Virus genome (UHGV): UHGV-0137099
DNA from: a virus
Direction: 5' to 3' (one strand)
DNA length: 25,615 nucleotides
The notes under the pieces are model-generated. The model was not told the origin of the DNA and searched no databases. It saw nothing but the letters and a program-made list of their open reading frames with translations. Shown here piece after piece: positions 1,270 to 18,485 of this stretch. The stretch's first letter is position 1; each line of letters starts with the position of its first letter. The position numbers and the translations under genes were made by a program.

Positions 1270-1498
1270 TAAAGATAGCTCCGAAGTCTGGTTCTTCCTC
1301 CCGCACCGTCTCTTCCTGCTGGTTGCGGTATTTAATCGGGTTCAGGAAATGGCCCCACGTCGTTTTAGGATGGCCGTCTGCCCTTTCCATGAAAAAGACT
1401 CCGGCCCGGCGTAGCGCTTCACACTGCCGCGATTTAAGCGGTGTCCCCGTCAGTTCGATCATTTCCTCTCTGGTGATGATGTCGTGATCGTGTCTCAT
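1253..1498 (-). CDS. xis: Excisionase-like small DNA-binding protein (putative Xis)
   Basis: 81-aa ORF directly upstream of int, overlapping the int start by 17 nt (classic xis-int arrangement); start preceded by GAGGAAAGACC. Product assigned by position and size only. Confidence 0.55.
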   Translation of the reverse strand: MRHDHDIITREEMIELTGTPLKSRQCEALRRAGVFFMERADGHPKTTWGHFLNPIKYRNQQEETVREEEPDFGAIFNGRKA

Positions 1499-1654
1499 GG
1501 TCTTTCCTCAGCATGCCGGCTATCGCGTTGTCTGCCGTATCGCAAGCGCGTTGGATATCGGACTGGGTCAGAGTCCTCTTTCTAACGCTGGCTGATAGCC
1601 TGCCAATTTTGATATCGAAATCTGAAAGTAAAAGTGTGCCTGGTTGCCAACGTA

Positions 1655-2461: not shown

Positions 2462-4611
2462 TATGCTTTCTCCTCGGCTTTATTCAGTTCCTTAATACGG
2501 CCATCCTTAATGGTGATGAGTCGGCGGAGTCGGCCAGACAGATAGCGTTCATGCTGCGTATCGCCGTTGGCCTGGGCGGCTTTAATGTGTACATCGATCT
2601 CACGTGCAATAGGGGAAAATACGCCATTGATTTCGTTCACCGTCACGCCATGCGCCAGGGTATTCGCAACGCGGCTTAATTTGTCGTCAAACTCCTGGCG
2701 AAGCCGTGCTGCATCTTCGGCTGATTCGCTGGCATTCTTCAGGTCAAACTCGGCCTTATTCTTCTGGCGGTACTCCAGATTGTCGTAAAGCCCCATAAAG
2801 ATATCGCCGCTGAATCCGAGGCCGGATAACGCTTTTTTGGTCGCATCAGTCAGTGATTTCTTGGCTGCTTCGCCGTCGCAGGTGATCCCATATTTACTGC
2901 CGTAGATGTAGGGTGTACAGCCGTATGCTGTTTCCTCACCTCGTACGCCGTTCAGGATGTACCAGAGCCGGACAGTCACAACATGGTGCTGTTCGTTGAC
3001 GGTATTACCATTCCCATCAAGAACCAGCTCCCACGATGCGTTGTTGTCTTTTCCTTTTACCTGGCGAGAGATCGGCGCGCCAATATCGAAACGCTCTTCA
3101 ACAATATCCACGCCCCAGCCGATACCCTTAGGGCCAAACTCACGGGTGGCGAGCATGGTCATGTAGGTACCGTTGATCGAGGTGCCACCGCCGTTCTGTG
3201 TGAAAGCCTTAGTAAACCTTTCGTCGGTTTTAAATACGCGTTTCCAGAGGTCTAAATTGTCTTCCCCGATGATTGGTTTTCCGACAGCCTGCACAACATC
3301 CTCAGCGTTAGGCAGGCTTTCAGCGTGAGCGATTTGTTTTGCTAAACGCTCGGAATCATCAGCCAGTTTTTCAGCCTTAACGCTTAACTTCTCTTCCGGC
3401 TCTGCACCTTCACCAGAGGCATATACGCCATAACCCATATCATTGAGCGTCTCACGCGCCTGTTTGGCCTGGGTGTCGGTTACAACCGGCTGCGGCGCTT
3501 CCACTTTTTCGCCCACGTTTGAGGCGGTATTTTGCGTCGCCTCTGGTTGTTTAACGGATCCTGTCTCGGTTTCCTCAAAGCGGCCGTTGGCCGCCAGCCA
3601 TGAATCGATATGGCGGCGCAGGCTGTCAGGGAAATGGTAGGTATCTTTCGCCGGTACGTTTTGTACCACGCCGAAGATGCTGGCGCGGTCGTATTTGAGT
3701 ATCTGCGGCGTGGTGTGCAGCGATGCTGACCAGCGTTTAAAATCTTCCCGGTCATCGGAAATCATCTTCTTAGCGTCCAGAAGGTTTCCGGATAGTACCG
3801 GCGCATCAGGCGCCAGCGGGAGAAGGGCGGTAGCGATCTCCTGATCCAGCGTTGCATAAGTGTGTTTATACCCGCGCTTAGAAATTACCACTGGCGTTTT
3901 ATCATCGGTGCTGGTGCTGAGAGCGGTATTTTTATATACGCCAGGGGCCAGTTCGTCGCGTTTGCCCGGATTCTCAAGCCAGCTTTTAACGAACTGAGAG
4001 ATAGCCGCTTTACCCGGCGTCTGGTTTTCAAAGTGGGAGAAAATACCCTGAATAAGATTGTTCAGACCTTCCACATGCATGCTTTGAATCGGGAAGTTAT
4101 TTTGCAGGGCGCACAGCACGTTAAAGTTGAAGCGGTCTTCTTCTTCAAATTCCCCATCGTGGTTTTTCAGGTTATCCAGATAATCCACAACCTGAGAATA
4201 AAGATGGCCATCAATCGCCGCGGTGCTAAAAAGCAGGACGGCAGCAAAGCGTTCTTCAGCGGAAACGGTCATAAGGTCGATCACTTCATCGTCGGCAGGT
4301 AAACCAGCACTACTTCCGGAAGCGCTATCCTGCACAGTAGAAATCCATTTTTCACCGTCAAAAGTATGCTGCTGGGCGAATGACTCATCGAACTGGCCAA
4401 CGGTAGGCAGCGGCTGGCCTTCAATGTGTTCCCACAGTTTCGGTTTGAAATAGTTGTCACCATTGGCCGGGTATGATTCCCAGAGTTTGCCGGTCATAAT
4501 GCTTTCGGCCACTTTTTTGTTTGGCGCATCGATTGCGATCGTCAGCTGAACGGCGCCGCAGTCTTTAATCGCCGATTTCTTTGGCTCAAATAAGCCGTTG
4601 TAGATGGTCAT
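2461..4611 (-). CDS. Rad52-family single-strand annealing protein with a ~450-aa N-terminal extension of unknown function
   Basis: C-terminal region FGPKGIGWG ... AYGCTPYIYGSKYG ... AAKKSLTDATKKALSGLGFSG resembles the Rad52 annealing core (FGYNGW ... KARKEAVTDGLKRALRSFG). Start chosen at ATG 4611 (MTIYNGLF...), which is directly preceded by GAGGAAAGACCA; the track's longer start at 4644 lacks this. Confidence 0.75.
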   Translation of the reverse strand: MTIYNGLFEPKKSAIKDCGAVQLTIAIDAPNKKVAESIMTGKLWESYPANGDNYFKPKLWEHIEGQPLPTVGQFDESFAQQHTFDGEKWISTVQDSASGSSAGLPADDEVIDLMTVSAEERFAAVLLFSTAAIDGHLYSQVVDYLDNLKNHDGEFEEEDRFNFNVLCALQNNFPIQSMHVEGLNNLIQGIFSHFENQTPGKAAISQFVKSWLENPGKRDELAPGVYKNTALSTSTDDKTPVVISKRGYKHTYATLDQEIATALLPLAPDAPVLSGNLLDAKKMISDDREDFKRWSASLHTTPQILKYDRASIFGVVQNVPAKDTYHFPDSLRRHIDSWLAANGRFEETETGSVKQPEATQNTASNVGEKVEAPQPVVTDTQAKQARETLNDMGYGVYASGEGAEPEEKLSVKAEKLADDSERLAKQIAHAESLPNAEDVVQAVGKPIIGEDNLDLWKRVFKTDERFTKAFTQNGGGTSINGTYMTMLATREFGPKGIGWGVDIVEERFDIGAPISRQVKGKDNNASWELVLDGNGNTVNEQHHVVTVRLWYILNGVRGEETAYGCTPYIYGSKYGITCDGEAAKKSLTDATKKALSGLGFSGDIFMGLYDNLEYRQKNKAEFDLKNASESAEDAARLRQEFDDKLSRVANTLAHGVTVNEINGVFSPIAREIDVHIKAAQANGDTQHERYLSGRLRRLITIKDGRIKELNKAEEKA

Positions 4612-4655
4612 TGGTCTTTCCTCTTGGTTTCTGGCGCAGGTCACGCGCCGGTTAA

Positions 4656-4979
4656 TTAAAACGGTACGTCGCTTTCTTCAATCGGAGAGTGATCGATGCA
4701 CAGCAGCTGCTGAATCTGGTCTTCAATAACACCCAGCTCCTTCTTAGCTTCGGCAGAGATTTTCTCTTTCTTCGCGCGAAGGGCATTAACCTGCATACCA
4801 ATAATGTCGATTGGTTCTAAAGCCGGGATGGCAACCTCTACCGTTTTGGTAGTAACGAGGACATACAGATCAGGGTATTGCTGTGACATGTCACAGGTGA
4901 ATGAGTGATAAGACGTTGGTAGATATGGGTTCGTTGTGGCCATAACGTAAACAGTTACGGGGATGGTAAGCGCTTCCAT
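4656..4979 (-). CDS. Hypothetical protein (107 aa)
   Basis: ORF on the operon strand with a strong SD (AAGGAG, 6-nt spacing) before ATG 4979. An alternative layout is an upstream 47-aa ORF from 5035 coupled to an internal ATG at 4889 (see findings). Confidence 0.5.
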   Translation of the reverse strand: MEALTIPVTVYVMATTNPYLPTSYHSFTCDMSQQYPDLYVLVTTKTVEVAIPALEPIDIIGMQVNALRAKKEKISAEAKKELGVIEDQIQQLLCIDHSPIEESDVPF

Positions 4980-5035
4980 AGCGACTCCTTGTTGATGTAT
5001 ACTCAGAGCCGATCAGTGTTGACTCTGTCGGCATT

Positions 5036-5427
5036 GGTCTTTCCTCATCACAAGCTTGGTCGCTTGTGATAAGTCCGAATGGTTTGGTCACCGTTCGGGG
5101 TAACTGGCCCGCCTTGTGCGGGCCTTTTGCCATCTAAAGGTTGCCGGTCTTTCCCGGCTGTCAGGGCTGGTCACGCCCGTTGGTCATTGGTCTTTCCTCC
5201 CGGTCTTTCCCGGCGCCAGAGCTGGTCAGGCTCGCTGGTCTTTCCTCACAGGCTCCCTCTTTTCGAGGGCTTCAGTTTTCACTGAACGGTCGCATAAATC
5301 TTTACTGTGTTAAAAAAATGCCCGGGGCGCCCGGGCCAAGACTACACACAGCAATTCGTATTCGTTGCGGTCTTTCCCGCATGTCATCGTACTGTCGGCG
5401 ACCCGAAGAATTCGTGCCCGTCTTTCC
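5036..5427. repeat. Array of at least 7 copies of the core GGTCTTTCC (minus-strand sense GGAAAGACC), several extended to CGGTCTTTCCCGG...CTGTCAG/GCTGGTC units
   Basis: Copies at 5036, 5146, 5189, 5202, 5237, 5369 and a degenerate one at 5419; the same core precedes start codons at 1499 and 4613. Confidence 0.8.
5312..5336 (-). terminator. Rho-independent terminator for leftward transcription
   Basis: GC hairpin GCCCGG-GGCGC-CCGGGC; on the minus strand it is followed by ATTTTTTT. Confidence 0.6.
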
Positions 5428-5581
5428 GGACTGTCAGAACTGTTTCTGAACAACTGCCGCGTGGTTAGTGCGTCGTTGATGTGATGTAATTTAGGTAAAT
5501 CTAACAAATTGGTCAATGATTAAATTAGAAAAAACGAACAATATGAGCGTAAAAAAATACATCTATCTGATTAGAAAGGGA

Positions 5582-5968
5582 TTATTTTTGTTTGCGGGCT
5601 TGCAGTAACTCTTCAAATAAACGATTGAAACCGTCTACTTTTTCGCGAAGTTCCGTTAAATGCCGCTCTTTTTCAGATTCAGGGAGTGACGAAAAGAGTT
5701 TTAAAAGCTCTGTTTCTCGTTCATCTAACGGCGGCGGGGTGTCTACCGGGGTTCCCGGAGTGGCGGCTTCATCGCCGTAAAGTATCCAGGTAGGGCTGCA
5801 TTGAAGTGCGTTACTTAAAGCGAATAGGTTTTTCCCGCCAGGCTCACTATCACCGGTCTCCCACTGGGAGATAGTGACGTGCGCGACGTTAACCAGCTTC
5901 GCTAAAGCGCGCTGAGTAAGTTTGAGATCTTTTCTACGCGCTCTGATGCGCTCACCTGGCATTGTCAT
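5582..5968 (-). CDS. Phage repressor, short XRE-family HTH protein without a LexA-like peptidase domain
   Basis: 128 aa; N-terminal HTH (LKLTQRALAKLVNVAHVTISQWETG); divergent from a Cro-like gene; no SD upstream of the ATG, so possibly leaderless like lambda cI from pRM. Confidence 0.8.
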   Translation of the reverse strand: MTMPGERIRARRKDLKLTQRALAKLVNVAHVTISQWETGDSEPGGKNLFALSNALQCSPTWILYGDEAATPGTPVDTPPPLDERETELLKLFSSLPESEKERHLTELREKVDGFNRLFEELLQARKQK

Positions 5969-6048: not shown

Positions 6049-6243
6049 ATGTTAACAACTGATGCGATCAAATATTTTGGTAGTAAGAGAAAACTGGCTG
6101 AGGCCGCTGGCGTTAAGGCTCCTACTGTCTATGCGTGGGGGCGTTTGGTTCCTGAAGGTAAAGCGGCTCGTTTGTCTCTGATGACTGATGGCGAACTTGT
6201 TTATGACCCAAAGGCTTACCAACTGCCAGCCAAATCAGCTTAA
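6049..6243 (+). CDS. cro: Cro-like repressor (P22 Cro family)
   Basis: 64 aa; IKYFGSKRKLAEAAGVKAPTVYAWGRLVPEGKAARLSLMTDGELVY parallels P22 Cro IDHFGTQRAVAKALGISDAAVSQWKEVIPEKDAYRLEIVTAGALKY (recalled from memory); divergent from the repressor. Confidence 0.8.
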   Translation: MLTTDAIKYFGSKRKLAEAAGVKAPTVYAWGRLVPEGKAARLSLMTDGELVYDPKAYQLPAKSA

Positions 6244-6305: not shown

Positions 6306-6752
6306 GTGGAATACCTCGAAGAACTTAAACGAGAGATCTTTAACTGGGCAGCGGAAAGCGGGCAGGAGCTGGTTGCTATCGAGATAAGCCGCATGTGGTT
6401 TCGTCTTGGTGGTAATACCGGTTCGCTGAAGCTGCACCAGATCGAAGATGCAGATGGAAACGCCGACTGGCGGGCAATCAACAACAACCGCCAACAAATT
6501 TTTCGTTGGTTGAGAGGCGAGACCAAAGCCGCGAGAGCCAAAACTCTGGCGCTGGTCAAAGCGATGGAAGCGGCGCTGCCGGCAGAGCGTTACGCTCGCT
6601 TGGGTATGTCCACCCAGTATTTAATTTGTGTGGCCATTCGTGAGTTTGCCGCGGCGATTATCGCGTTGTTACTCGACGCCAGAGACGGGCCGCAGCAAGT
6701 CGCCAGAGCATTGCAAGCTATGCGAGAAACACAGCGCCTGACCAGCGTTTAA
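6306..6752 (+). CDS. Early regulatory protein, possibly CII-like / YdaT-family
   Basis: 148 aa with GTG start and AGGAG SD; sits where cII lies in lambdoid phages (right after cro). Family call is tentative. Confidence 0.45.
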   Translation: MEYLEELKREIFNWAAESGQELVAIEISRMWFRLGGNTGSLKLHQIEDADGNADWRAINNNRQQIFRWLRGETKAARAKTLALVKAMEAALPAERYARLGMSTQYLICVAIREFAAAIIALLLDARDGPQQVARALQAMRETQRLTSV

Positions 6753-6772
6753 CCTGTACCGAGGAAAGACCA

Positions 6773-6994
6773 ATGAGAACACAAGACCGCATCACCTGGC
6801 GGAACGGGTTTCGCCGGAACGGGGTACAAGTCCCGATAGAAGATATCGAATCGATTTTCGAGGAACGTCGCGCTACTGCGCTGACAATCTGGGAACGCTA
6901 TGAACTGCGTAAGGCAGACCTACAGGAAGCGGGACTCACCCAGAAAGAATACGAAATCGCCTGCCGCCAGCTGGCTGACTCGCTGGGGATTTGA
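6773..6994 (+). CDS. Hypothetical protein (73 aa)
   Basis: Start preceded by the conserved GAGGAAAGACCAATG module and an upstream GC hairpin. Confidence 0.5.
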   Translation: MRTQDRITWRNGFRRNGVQVPIEDIESIFEERRATALTIWERYELRKADLQEAGLTQKEYEIACRQLADSLGI

Positions 6995-9383: not shown

Positions 9384-9421
9384 CCGCGCCTGACCAGCGC
9401 GATTTAACAGAGGAAAGACCA

Positions 9422-10090
9422 ATGACCACGAATTTAAATTACCCAAAACCAGTAAAACCGGATGATGGCTGCAACTGGCTCCCCGTTATTCTCTGGCGCA
9501 TGAACGCCGGCGCGCGCGCCCGTAGCCGTTCCGTGTTCGTTGCGGCGCCACGTCCGGCACCTGTACCCGGCATCACCCCGCAAAAACCGATTAAACGTGA
9601 AATTATCGCCCCTACGGTTTCCGGTCGCAGGCGAAAAACCCACATCGGCACTGTGATTTATTCCAGAGGTGAAAAAAACGTTCGCCTGAGTGAAGGTGCT
9701 ACCGTCTGGTCTGCTGGCTCTAATGAGCATTTCGATAAAAAAACGGGCCGGCGCGTTGGCAGTATTGGCCGTCACCGTCTGGTGCTTGAGAGTATTCGCC
9801 CATTGCGGGCCAGCGACGAACAGCAGGACGCCGGGAGCATCACCGCGCAGCAACTGGTATCCGTGATGAAAGGCAAAACGCTTTCTTACCAGGGCATTCT
9901 AGCATTAATCCAGAAGCACTACCCAGATTGTCAGGTGACGATTAAAGAACTTCACGATCGCGTGTTCGGCATGTTCATGTCGAATTACGTGGGTATCACC
10001 CGTCACGACGATATGCCGGTGGTTCACTTCACGCTTAACAGCGTCGATCCCCGTTATTACATCGAGTCAGCGAAGAACAAGAGGGCATAA
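9422..10090 (+). CDS. Hypothetical protein (222 aa, basic N-terminal half)
   Basis: ORF preceded by GC hairpin CGCGCCTGACCAGCGCG and AGGAAAGACCAATG; no recognisable motif. Confidence 0.55.
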   Translation: MTTNLNYPKPVKPDDGCNWLPVILWRMNAGARARSRSVFVAAPRPAPVPGITPQKPIKREIIAPTVSGRRRKTHIGTVIYSRGEKNVRLSEGATVWSAGSNEHFDKKTGRRVGSIGRHRLVLESIRPLRASDEQQDAGSITAQQLVSVMKGKTLSYQGILALIQKHYPDCQVTIKELHDRVFGMFMSNYVGITRHDDMPVVHFTLNSVDPRYYIESAKNKRA

Positions 10091-17260: not shown

Positions 17261-18095
17261 ACACTTATTGATGAACGCCGAGCAGGGCGCAGAAGCGCCA
17301 GCAGGCAGCACAGGGGGCAATGATGGTGGCAATGGCGATGGTACTCAAAATCCGGGCGGCGGTAATCCTGCTGGTACTTCGCTACTCAGCACCGGCGCGG
17401 TCGAACAAGGCGCGGATGACTGGCTACCTGAAAAATACCGCGTTATGGGCGATGACGGAAAACTCAACGTTGAAGGCTCAGCCCGCAAACTGGCGGATGC
17501 TTACTCGCACCTTGAAAAGCGCATGGGCAGCGGGGACACGCCGCCGAAAACTGCTGATGAGTATGCGCCAAAGGTAGAGGTCGAGGGCTTCAAGTGGGAC
17601 GAATTCAAAGCCGACCCACGCATGCAATCCTTCATGAAATCGGCGCATGCCAAAGGCATCACCAACGATCAGATGGGTTTCATCCTGGGCGAATATGCAC
17701 AGCTGGCCCCCGAACTGGTTAACGGTGCTGCGACGCTGGATTCGGAAGCCGCCGCCACGCAGCTGCGCGAGACGTGGAAAACTGACGCCGAGTTTAATAA
17801 AAACATCGGTCTGGCTTTCCGGGCGTTTAACTCTCTGGCGGATGACAGCGACAAAGGGCGTATGGATGAAATCGGCAATAACCCGCTGGTGATCCGCATG
17901 CTGGCGAAAATCGGCGCTGAAATGCAGGAAGATGCACCGGCGGGCGGTGATGTGAATCTCGAAGAGCAGCAATCAATCCGCGACCTGATGAAATCCCCGG
18001 CGTATATGGATCCTAAACACGCTGACCATGAGAACGTTTCCGCCCGGGTTCGCGCCTATTACCAGAAGCGTTACGGCGATCAAACTGTAGCGTGA
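17247..18095 (+). CDS. Putative capsid assembly (scaffolding) protein
   Basis: 282 aa, strongly acidic, Gly/Ala-rich N-terminus, between portal and major capsid; assignment positional. Confidence 0.5.
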   Translation: MWKIKHLLMNAEQGAEAPAGSTGGNDGGNGDGTQNPGGGNPAGTSLLSTGAVEQGADDWLPEKYRVMGDDGKLNVEGSARKLADAYSHLEKRMGSGDTPPKTADEYAPKVEVEGFKWDEFKADPRMQSFMKSAHAKGITNDQMGFILGEYAQLAPELVNGAATLDSEAAATQLRETWKTDAEFNKNIGLAFRAFNSLADDSDKGRMDEIGNNPLVIRMLAKIGAEMQEDAPAGGDVNLEEQQSIRDLMKSPAYMDPKHADHENVSARVRAYYQKRYGDQTVA

Positions 18096-18128
18096 CATGT
18101 CACGACAACTTAACCAGAGGAAAGACCA

Positions 18129-18485
18129 ATGAGCGACAAAGATATCGAACAGCAAATTCAGGCTAAAGGCTTAACCGCGCCGCGCGTCACTCCACAGCAC
18201 ATTGATAGCGTTATTGCTGAATGTCATTACTTTACGGCTGGCGAGGCTGCGCGCGCTGGGTGGCCTGACCCTAATGCCGCCGATCCGATTCACCCAAATC
18301 TAGACCTACTTACTATCTGCGTTCTGGTGCTACGTAACGGCTTCACCGTCACCGGCGAAAGCGCCTGCGCCAGCCCGGAAAACTTCGACCCTGAAATCGG
18401 GCGCAAGATTGCACGCGATAACGCGGTAAATAAAATCTGGATGCTGGAGGGGTATTTGCTCAAACAGAAATTAAGCGAACAGTAA
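18129..18485 (+). CDS. Hypothetical virion-module protein (118 aa)
   Basis: Preceded by palindrome CGTGACATGTCACG and AGGAAAGACCAATG; between scaffold and capsid genes. Confidence 0.5.
   Translation: MSDKDIEQQIQAKGLTAPRVTPQHIDSVIAECHYFTAGEAARAGWPDPNAADPIHPNLDLLTICVLVLRNGFTVTGESACASPENFDPEIGRKIARDNAVNKIWMLEGYLLKQKLSEQ

Follow-up and report, generated by a model that had tools for sequence, protein, structure and literature searches.

A convergent pair of predicted small-RNA genes and an array of start-site copies in the early-left leader of the lambdoid-type prophage UHGV-0137099

UHGV-0137099, analysed here over a window of 25,615 nucleotides (nt; 25.6 kb), is a lambdoid-type prophage integrated beside a tRNA gene. 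Between an open reading frame (ORF) of 107 amino acids (aa; 4979..4656, - strand) and the gene for a short helix-turn-helix (HTH) repressor (5968..5582, - strand), a gap at 4980-5581 holds no convincing gene. A preliminary description of this DNA had remarked on the gap, which was non-coding in our analysis as well. A sigma-70 promoter of the pL type (TTGACC-17 nt-TAAATT, 5516..5488, - strand; 9/12 consensus matches) is directed leftward into the gap, which is therefore the pL leader, as its position had suggested. From its sequence, we propose that this leader is a convergent pair of small-RNA (sRNA) genes with an array of target sites between them, in line with the earlier suggestion of an sRNA locus. 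The sRNA read on the + strand, antisense to the pL transcript, would be directed against start sites: its targets would be the pL transcript in cis and, in trans, a small phage regulon, and the copies of the start sequence in the leader would be extra targets or a sponge. We put the probability of this reading at about one half.

Relatives of the leader were retrieved with an exact 18-mer from its 5' part, which gave about 120 loci from IMG/VR and from bacterial genomes (Escherichia, Enterobacter, Citrobacter, Raoultella and Pseudescherichia), whereas a contig scan using the 107-aa protein found no relatives. The three-part leader was present in about 120 related prophages of Klebsiella, Escherichia, Citrobacter, Enterobacter, Raoultella, Serratia and Jejubacter; the leaders of the relatives comprised 99 distinct sequences of 396-1379 nt.

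An antisense sRNA of about 120 nt very probably exists on the + strand, at about 5011-5131, with its own -10 element, three hairpins and its own terminator. The -10 element of the predicted promoter is TATACT (4998-5003), and TATA[C/A]T was invariant in all 31 sequence contexts, in which the flanks varied. Serratia relatives have a perfect extended -10 (TGATATAAT), situated 6 nt nearer the ribosome-binding site (RBS) of the 107-aa gene; this different distance argues against a sense function linked to that RBS. The first hairpin of the RNA (5011-5039) is followed by hairpins with the loops UUGGUC (5047-5070) and UUGGUCA (5075-5098), and a seed region, CAUUGGUCUUUCCUC (5032-5046), lies between the first two. 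In all, the RNA holds three copies of the recognition hexamer UUGGUC. Its terminator (5106-5128) reads GGCCCGCCUUGUGCGGGCC-UUUU, at a place where the sense side shows A-tracts, and in other lineages the + strand terminator is AGCCCACUUCGGUGGGC-U6.

The window copy of this RNA folded with a minimum free energy (MFE) of -64.2 kcal/mol (z -8.6), a single structure making up 49% of the ensemble. Covariation was scored over the 25 base pairs of the three helices 5' of the terminator, in 34 distinct sequences. In the antisense reading 98.9% of cells were paired, and compensatory changes occurred in 12 of the 25 pairs; the covariation score was 0.405 compared with 0.222 in shuffles, none of 500 of which reached the observed value, and slid registers gave at most 0.108. 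Read on the sense strand, the same helices were paired in 78.4% of cells, and the count of 178 G.U against 8 A.C cells favours the + strand. Conversely, when the hairpins of this part of the leader (region 3, 5131->5009) were read in sense, with loops GACCAA, they showed 155 Watson-Crick (WC), 28 A.C and 1 G.U pairs; they were therefore selected as G.U-containing helices of the opposite strand. Sequence features expected of cis-encoded antisense sRNAs of the OOP/Sar class are thus present: an opposite-strand promoter, intrinsic termination and a stable fold selected on that strand. Neither this RNA nor the sense RNA described below appears in annotations or in Rfam families: a search of the leader for known RNA families (Rfam, E <= 10) returned only a sub-threshold RprA match and terminator-level matches.

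The seed region CAUUGGUCUUUCCUC is the exact complement of GAGGAAAGACCAAUG, a 15-mer that spans the Shine-Dalgarno (SD) sequence to the AUG of four genes: an exonuclease-like (exo-like) gene (4611), a 73-aa gene after the cII-like gene (6773), a 222-aa gene after dnaB (9422) and a moron (18129). Upstream of the 15-mer, a hairpin completes what we call the start module. In the exo-like module (4609..4649, - strand) the hairpin GGCGC-GUGACCU-GCGCC (4649..4633) precedes GAGGAAAGACCAAUG (4623..4609; predicted pairing with the sRNA, -13.5 kcal/mol). On the + strand, GAGGAAAGACCAAUG is preceded by GCGC-CUGACCA-GCGU in the module of the 73-aa gene (phrog_2465, after CII-like/YdaT; 6734..6775; -12.3 kcal/mol), by GCGC-CUGACCA-GCGC in that of the 222-aa gene (phrog_4183; 9386..9424; -11.0 kcal/mol), and by the palindromic hairpin GCGUGACAUGUCACG in the moron module (18090..18131; -12.3 kcal/mol). 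A fifth, partial module lies at the start of the excisionase gene xis (DUF4224; UGAGGAAAGACCAUG, 1496..1510, - strand), with a 13-nt match (1510..1498) and no upstream hairpin. Outside the leader, no further seed match of at least 12 nt was found in the whole 25.6 kb beyond the four 15-mers and the xis 13-mer.

At three of the four 15-mer starts the hairpin lies 12-18 nt upstream and has a loop, CUGACCA or GUGACCU, that is complementary to the sRNA loops UUGGUC(A); the exceptions are the moron, whose palindromic hairpin has a different sequence, and xis, without a hairpin. The 5'-3' order of the loop and seed elements fits antiparallel binding at two sites. Pairing was scored by exact-complement mapping together with accessibility-corrected local energies, as whole-sRNA RNAduplex runs against 90-nt start regions gave rise to long spurious duplexes and were dropped. 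By this measure the four full sites are predicted to pair at -11 to -13.5 kcal/mol, all over positions -13 to +3, and all eight control starts remained above +1.5.

In the complete phage BUCT708 the module is found at the same four early positions. It occupies them also in prophages of Serratia, E. coli and Jejubacter whose linked 107-aa proteins share only 39-50% identity; the 73-aa position, in particular, carries the module in BUCT708 and in the relatives from these three groups. The position is kept even where the downstream protein differs, as after dnaB and where Exc takes the place of DUF4224. The exo-like ORF, called mechanically, runs from GTG 4644 to 2461 on the - strand (727 aa); its true start, as placed by the conserved start module, is ATG 4611 (716 aa). 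The moron (18129-18485, + strand; 118 aa, Pfam Phage_gp49_66, gp49/Sf6-gp66 family) lies between protease-like and major head genes. As it carries a full start module of the early type, inserted genes either bring the module with them or gain it.

Copies of the start sequence also fill the middle of the leader. Region 2 (about 5305->5140, - strand) is made of units that consist of GAGGAAAGACCA(A/G)NG, a hairpin with loop YUGACCA and a hairpin with loop GAAAGA. In the window, two units of about 55 nt occupy 5143..5248 (- strand). Unit 1 comprises the start-type copy TGAGGAAAGACCA (5248..5236), hairpin A (GAGC-CUGACCA-GCUC, 5233..5219) and hairpin B (CCGG-GAAAGA-CCGG, 5213..5200); unit 2 comprises GAGGAAAGACCAAUG (5199..5185), followed by an 8-codon ORF (5187..5161), with hairpin A (GGGC-GUGACCA-GCCC, 5178..5164) and hairpin B (GCCGG-GAAAGA-CCGGC, 5158..5143). 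Relatives have one to three or more units, in array length classes of 75-85, 126-137, 168-186 and 213-215 nt. The loops are fixed and the stems vary between copies and lineages, where they covary: GCGG/CCGC, GCCGG/CCGGC, GUCCG/CGGGC, GUCUG/CAGGC and GUGG/CCAC enclose GAAAGA, and GAGC/GCUC and GGGC/GCCC enclose YUGACCA. RNAalifold failed here because of the variation in unit number, and the array hairpins were therefore scored by wobble counts for each hairpin; hairpin A stems read in sense gave 46 WC, 5 G.U and 1 A.C pairs.

Across the window, the core 9-mer GGAAAGACC has 12 exact copies against 0.195 expected. The form GGTCTTTCC occurs exactly on the + strand of the leader at 5036, 5146, 5189, 5202, 5237 and 5369, with a one-mismatch copy at 5419, and outside the leader at 4613 and 1499 (+ strand) and at 6763, 9412 and 18119 (- strand). 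With up to one mismatch allowed, 16 matches were counted, compared with 4.9 +/- 2.1 in shuffles, and none of 100 shuffles reached 16. All core copies run in the sense of local transcription, on the - strand left of the immunity region and on the + strand right of it. The copy number varies among related prophages, a point that the preliminary description had left to such a comparison: each of about 120 related loci has 2-10 copies of the core, all of them in sense. The enrichment reported there is thus real, although the "at least seven copies" between 5030 and 5440 are six exact copies and one with a mismatch. Likewise, its tandem array is confined to a single repeat detected by Tandem Repeats Finder (TRF), two copies of a 55-nt unit with 76% match at 5144-5257; the other copies are dispersed. 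The two mini-ORFs that it noted, the 8-codon ORF (MTNGRDQP*) and the one opened by ATG 5033, exist in the window but are not conserved. In relatives an ATG stood 3' of the leader copy in 36/85 and 51/131 cases, with ORF lengths of 2-54 aa; because the ATG is present in under half of the copies and the length is so variable, the leader mini-ORFs are not genes. A role as functional decoy ORFs is not supported, their start codons being unconserved, and a decayed coding sequence was rejected because neither start codons nor frames are conserved.

The second sRNA of the pair is read in sense. A pL-proximal leader RNA of about 170 nt (5481->5312, - strand) is predicted to form a multibranch fold that ends at an intrinsic terminator, t1 (5336..5312; GCCCGGGCGCCCCGGGC then AUUUUUUU). 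This is the leftward GC hairpin terminator already located at 5312-5336, with a stem at 5336..5320 of 7 G-C pairs and a T7 run. The MFE of the window copy was -62.8 kcal/mol (z -3.3), and 31 variants gave a consensus fold of -47.5 kcal/mol on the sense strand, compared with -26.3 on the antisense strand. Enclosed in the fold are hp0 (5449..5434), hp1 (5431..5416) and hp2 (5381..5366), the last two with loops GAAAGA. Just 5' of the terminator, the 22 nt of ACGAAUUGCUGUGUGUAGUCUU (5338..5359, - strand) are identical to E. coli K-12 rprA (b4431), in which they occupy the same place; in the predicted fold, the 5' segment CUAACCACGCGGCAG pairs with this RprA-like core at AAUUGCUGUGUGUAG. The terminator t1 is conserved in relatives, including those with inserts of 160-790 nt 5' of the core.

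The Rfam model of RprA (RF00034) scored 43.3 bits on the leader (E 5.8e-4), under its gathering score of 70, the match being limited to the 3' core and the terminator; the leader RNA does not, on this score, belong to the family. A processed 47-nt 3' form of RprA is active by itself (PMC9262595), and the phage core corresponds to this form. The likeness to RprA is thus restricted to the 22-nt stretch and its position directly 5' of the terminator. In contrast, the 5' two thirds of the phage sRNA are unrelated, the phage RNA comes from a repressor-controlled promoter, and the core is held in a predicted long-range helix. The presence of the active 3' core of RprA under repressor control suggests that induction reprogrammes RprA targets, or that the two RNAs share ancestry: the core could act on these targets when the prophage is induced, or may reflect descent.

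In the mechanism that we propose, the antisense sRNA would be made in the lysogen. Kissing between its loops and those of the start modules would nucleate pairing, which would then zip over the SD sequence and the AUG, so that translation of leaky or incoming transcripts of module genes would be blocked. The sRNA would also pair in cis with the pL transcript just 5' of the 107-aa gene. The leader copies, that is the two full units past t1 and the two GAAAGA hairpins within the terminated sense sRNA, would be either landing sites through which the early-left transcript is silenced, or a sponge. When pL fires at induction, the sponge would titrate the sRNA and release the regulon, and transcription from pL would collide with the antisense promoter. 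The array had earlier been suggested to titrate a factor that recognizes the start module; this fits the data, but the likely factor is the RNA of the opposite strand of the leader, which had escaped notice.

Possible roles are a fail-safe against leaky xis and exo expression, the setting of an induction threshold, or cross-immunity to heteroimmune relatives; phages that differ in repressor and operator have the same module and sRNA, and the sRNA could therefore hit superinfecting heteroimmune relatives. We regard as tentative, and on balance doubtful, the widest form of the proposal, in which a phage-wide regulon (xis, exo, two early-right genes and morons) is flipped at induction by a sponge made of the leader array and the RprA-mimic sRNA, and confers heteroimmune cross-immunity. 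This form would be the first mechanistic explanation of start-associated sequences in phages. If the proposal as first stated is correct, translation of the genes for excision and recombination and of early-right genes would be controlled by a single antisense sRNA, through a shared start module and with decoy sites in the pL leader, and a large unstudied family of Enterobacterales prophages would add an RNA layer over repressor control. The proposal offers a testable candidate for the function of start-associated sequences, a question open since 2011 for Cluster K mycobacteriophages.

Several observations weigh against the action in cis and in trans proposed for the antisense sRNA. The RNA itself is deduced from sequence alone. 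Its -35 element is poor (TCCATA/TTCCAT) and not free to vary, since it overlaps the RBS and start codon of the 107-aa ORF. Pairing within the first hairpin is predicted for half of the seed (CAUUGGUC), which leaves only UUUCCUC clearly exposed, and xis is predicted to pair weakly (-2.1 kcal/mol). No lineage, even among the most divergent relatives (39-50% protein identity), departs from the core GAGGAAAGACC; a test of covariation between seed and target therefore has no power, and the invariance could just as well reflect an invariant host partner. Moreover, the sRNA and the sense copy opposite it share the same DNA, so that conservation of the seed cannot tell which strand is selected. In the array, the wobble counts of the GAAAGA-loop hairpins gave no clear strand signal. 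Finally, the passage of transcription through the strong terminator t1 to the early-left genes is left unexplained.

Modules and hairpins could instead be operators for an RNA-binding protein, of the host (for example CsrA) or an unrecognised one of the phage, which the array would titrate, the antisense RNA acting purely in cis on the early-left transcript. This explanation is plausible, if unlikely. The absolute invariance of the core across genera is what an invariant host partner would produce. CsrA binds GGA in loops and at SD sequences. In the leader, GGA occurs 11 times in sense and once in antisense, adjacent GGA pairs 13 nt apart (5210/5197) would suit a CsrA dimer, and the hairpin stems covary around fixed loops. 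The conservation, however, extends far beyond GGA, to 11-15 nt of GAGGAAAGACCAAUG, and the YUGACCA hairpins contain no GGA. Unlike in sponges of the CsrB/RsmX type, the first G of GGA lies in a stem and the conserved motif is much longer; matches to CsrB/Rsm-type Rfam models were negligible (rsmX scored 14.3 bits where the gathering score is 56, and did so on the + strand, the wrong one). Neither an RNA-binding domain nor an arginine-rich motif was seen in any phage ORF. The 107-aa and 73-aa proteins were considered as RNA binders and neither shows a supporting feature, the 73-aa early-right protein having only 2-3 conserved Arg residues. Above all, a protein operator would make a coincidence of the exact and geometry-consistent complement to a structured RNA encoded at least 1 kb away.

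The remaining explanations are each less likely than a protein operator. The module could be a self-sufficient expression cassette that needs no trans-acting factor, combining a strong SD sequence at optimal spacing with an upstream hairpin for stabilizing or processing polycistronic mRNA; it would be spread by module exchange, and its leader copies could be relics of duplication and of moron insertion. GAGGA at a spacing of 7 nt is indeed a strong RBS, and the module precedes morons, namely the gp49/66-like gene and a 48-aa ORF in the leaders of relatives. We consider this improbable, since a generic RBS with a hairpin needs neither invariant loops nor an invariant GACCA between SD and AUG, the leader copies persist without start codons in all lineages, and the promoter, terminator and wobble asymmetry of the + strand are left unexplained.

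Antitermination had been put forward because the position matches a pL leader or nut region. In a processive mechanism of the nut or put type, the GAAAGA and GACCAA/UGACCA hairpins, directly 3' of pL, would be boxB-like (with GNRA-like loops) or put-like elements for read-through of t1 and later terminators. Boxes B of lambda and P22 have loops GAAAA/GAAGA and GACAA, respectively, and the 5-bp stems and purine-rich loops of the leader recall them; furthermore, t1 must be overcome for expression of the 107-aa gene, exo, gam, xis and int, and the 5' leader is conserved behind unrelated promoters. We nevertheless judge this explanation quite improbable, in its lambda form in particular. No boxA (CGCUCUUA-like) was found, CGCTCTT and GCTCTT[AT] being absent from the 502-nt sense leader, and neither early operon encodes an N-like arginine-rich protein; the first ORF (107 aa, phrog_2479) ends instead in an acidic tail like that of SSB (DVPF). 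Most copies lie past t1, and in both operons, as well as in the head region, the modules coincide exactly with the SD and AUG of internal genes. HK022 put RNA has two adjacent stem-loops close behind the promoter that work in cis on RNA polymerase with no protein needed; the 5' leader of the prophage is structured and conserved, and its two pre-terminator GAAAGA hairpins, hp1 and hp2, are replaced in leaders of the Serratia and L091 types, where everything else is kept.

The modules stand at mosaic boundaries, and the leader, with its insertion hotspot, stays conserved although the immunity regions beside it vary. They might therefore act at the level of DNA, as junction (linker) sequences or small mobile elements by which mosaic phages recombine their modules; this is very improbable, as module orientation follows transcription in both divergent operons and the covariation of stems with wobble asymmetry points to selection on RNA. 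Mimicry of rRNA is hardly credible, whether the hairpins were decoys for an rRNA-directed enzyme or 23S rRNA was itself bound by the antisense sRNA through pairing: GGAAAGACC, invariant across genera, equals 23S rRNA G2056-C2064, with the A2058 macrolide/Erm site (E. coli 2054-2068 is ACGGAAAGACCCCGU, also a TLR13 ligand; PMC12887398, PMC3661153), but a random 9-mer falls in 23S rRNA with a probability of about 0.01, so that the identity is probably a coincidence, the flanking bases differ from rRNA and no rRNA-modifying enzyme is encoded nearby.

The literature on the motif, on RprA homologues in prophages and on Klebsiella prophage sRNAs yielded no earlier description. By analogy, the proposed action of the leader sRNA most resembles that of P1 c4, with its repeated targets, and of lambda OOP and P22 Sar; the locus may be viewed as a variant of phage antisense and sponge RNA control that belongs to no Rfam family. 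In the immI region of P1/P7 (Rfam C4 RF01695, c4-a1b1 RF03163), the loops of c4 pair with short repeated target boxes that include a ribosome-binding site; repeated a and b boxes lie upstream of icd-ant, sRNA and targets share one leader, and the system is a second layer over lytic functions. However, c4 is processed from the strand of its targets, whereas the RNA predicted here is antisense, with its own promoter and terminator, and its targets are dispersed over at least four genes in both early operons. The C4/c4-a1b1 models (Rfam CL00128) gave no match in the window at gathering score and none in the leader at E <= 10. Lambda OOP and P22 Sar are, like the predicted RNA, short antisense RNAs with their own constitutive-type promoter and intrinsic terminator, situated inside an early operon and converging on an early promoter. 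They act only on the overlapping gene (cII, ant), in contrast with the present case, where the RNA overlaps a non-coding leader and the complementary 15-mer recurs at gene starts far away.

Start-associated sequences (SAS) of Cluster K mycobacteriophages are 13-bp SD-containing motifs (GGGATAGGAGCCC), present in 11-19 copies 3-7 bp upstream of start codons, about half of them preceded by an inverted repeat (extended SAS, ESAS; PMC3203893). The two systems have in common an asymmetric SD-containing motif in one orientation, before a subset of genes and with an upstream inverted repeat. They share this architecture alone: the sequences differ (GGGATAGGAGCCC against GAGGAAAGACC(A)), as do the host phylum and the number of sites (11-19 against 4-5 gene starts and the leader copies), and in the prophage the hairpin stems covary and a candidate trans-acting RNA can be identified.

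In position, the leader is comparable to Qin dicBF, where an HTH repressor and a leader with a terminated sRNA are likewise found with a YdfE-type exonuclease, Gp157, xis and int; Serratia copies of the exo-like protein match Pfam YdfE_N/YdfE_C, which links the operon to Qin ydfE. The sRNA core is RprA-like here, and not DicF, and a search of the K-12 Qin prophage revealed no GGAAAGACC modules and no antisense sRNA. Type III toxin-antitoxin loci (ToxI-like) have several near-identical tandem repeats of 34-36 nt, a terminator and a gene for a ToxN-type endoribonuclease. Such a locus was rejected, as the leader has only two repeats of 55 nt at 76% match and the downstream ORF has no match to ToxN or to any other Pfam family. 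The anti-sRNAs AgvB and AsxR of enterohaemorrhagic E. coli (EHEC) are prophage sponges that titrate host GcvB and FnrS (PMC4104026). The concept is similar, a prophage RNA with mimic sites titrating a base-pairing RNA, but here both sponge and sRNA would be encoded by the phage, with mimic sites that duplicate phage start regions; AgvB itself gave an Rfam match at terminator level only (17.7 bits against 56).

The tRNA gene that directly adjoins the integrase end of the prophage (35-118, + strand; Rfam 57.7 bits) is likely its attachment site, and was the sole Rfam match at gathering score in the whole window. Left-side genes encode an integrase, the DUF4224 excisionase (xis), a Gam-like protein, the 716-aa YdfE-type exonuclease-like protein and the 107-aa ORF; beyond the latter are the HTH repressor, cro (6049-6243), the CII-like/YdaT gene, replication genes and head and tail genes. 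An operator-like sequence, TCTAACAAATT, occurs at pL and a second time near PR/PRM. The host is probably Klebsiella, as most homologues of the 107-aa protein are from this genus. This protein (phrog_2479, function unassigned) has no Pfam match. It is often annotated as 77 aa from Met31, but the 30 N-terminal residues missing from that version are conserved down to 39% identity. Its acidic tail (...EESDVPF or DADEIPF, with P-F invariant) is similar to the tip of the SSB C-terminus (DDDIPF), and the protein may mimic the SSB tail and be one that works with the products of the adjoining exonuclease and Gam genes. The repressor, of 128 aa, consists of the HTH domain only. Its lack of an S24 peptidase domain suggests that induction proceeds through an antirepressor. 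The related locus L066 has Rfam matches to isrK, C4 and c4-a1b1, the antirepressor control region of the P1 type, at about 10.57-10.77 kb.

The leader is present, as unannotated DNA, in 454 of 5426 complete E. coli genomes, and the prophage family is frequent in Klebsiella, Serratia, Citrobacter and Enterobacter. The leader begins at CATCAACGACGC, which in relatives is preceded by quite different promoters and operators; its conservation therefore does not depend on immunity type. Among isolated phages, it is carried only by BUCT708 (OM816834.1, L001) and BUCT709 (OM816835.1, L156). Both are labelled as Stenotrophomonas phages and are about 93% identical to the window, and all other relatives are Enterobacterales prophages; we consider this host label doubtful.

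Within the multiloop of the sense sRNA, the insertion hotspot of the leader is flanked by hp2 and the RprA-like core. Many relatives have an insert of 160-790 nt at this place, as in the leaders of L001 (4985-5250), L003 (4440-4750), L002, L027, L043 and L066; the inserts are either structured RNA, with a long-range helix (GAGCGCACU/AGUGCGCUC) and a T-arm-like element (GGTTCGATTCCGG), or a 48-aa ORF (MTKKDMTDML...) that uses a start module. A tRNA/tmRNA scan and an Rfam search of these leader insertions gave no match. The RNA insert is in part similar to the spacer between ydfC and dicF in Qin (GTCGTTAAATTTT...GTGCGCT-CCGGTTGTGG). Elsewhere in the relatives, Rfam sRNA-Xcc1 matched above gathering score in L045 (12230-12318) and L048 (10882-10970).

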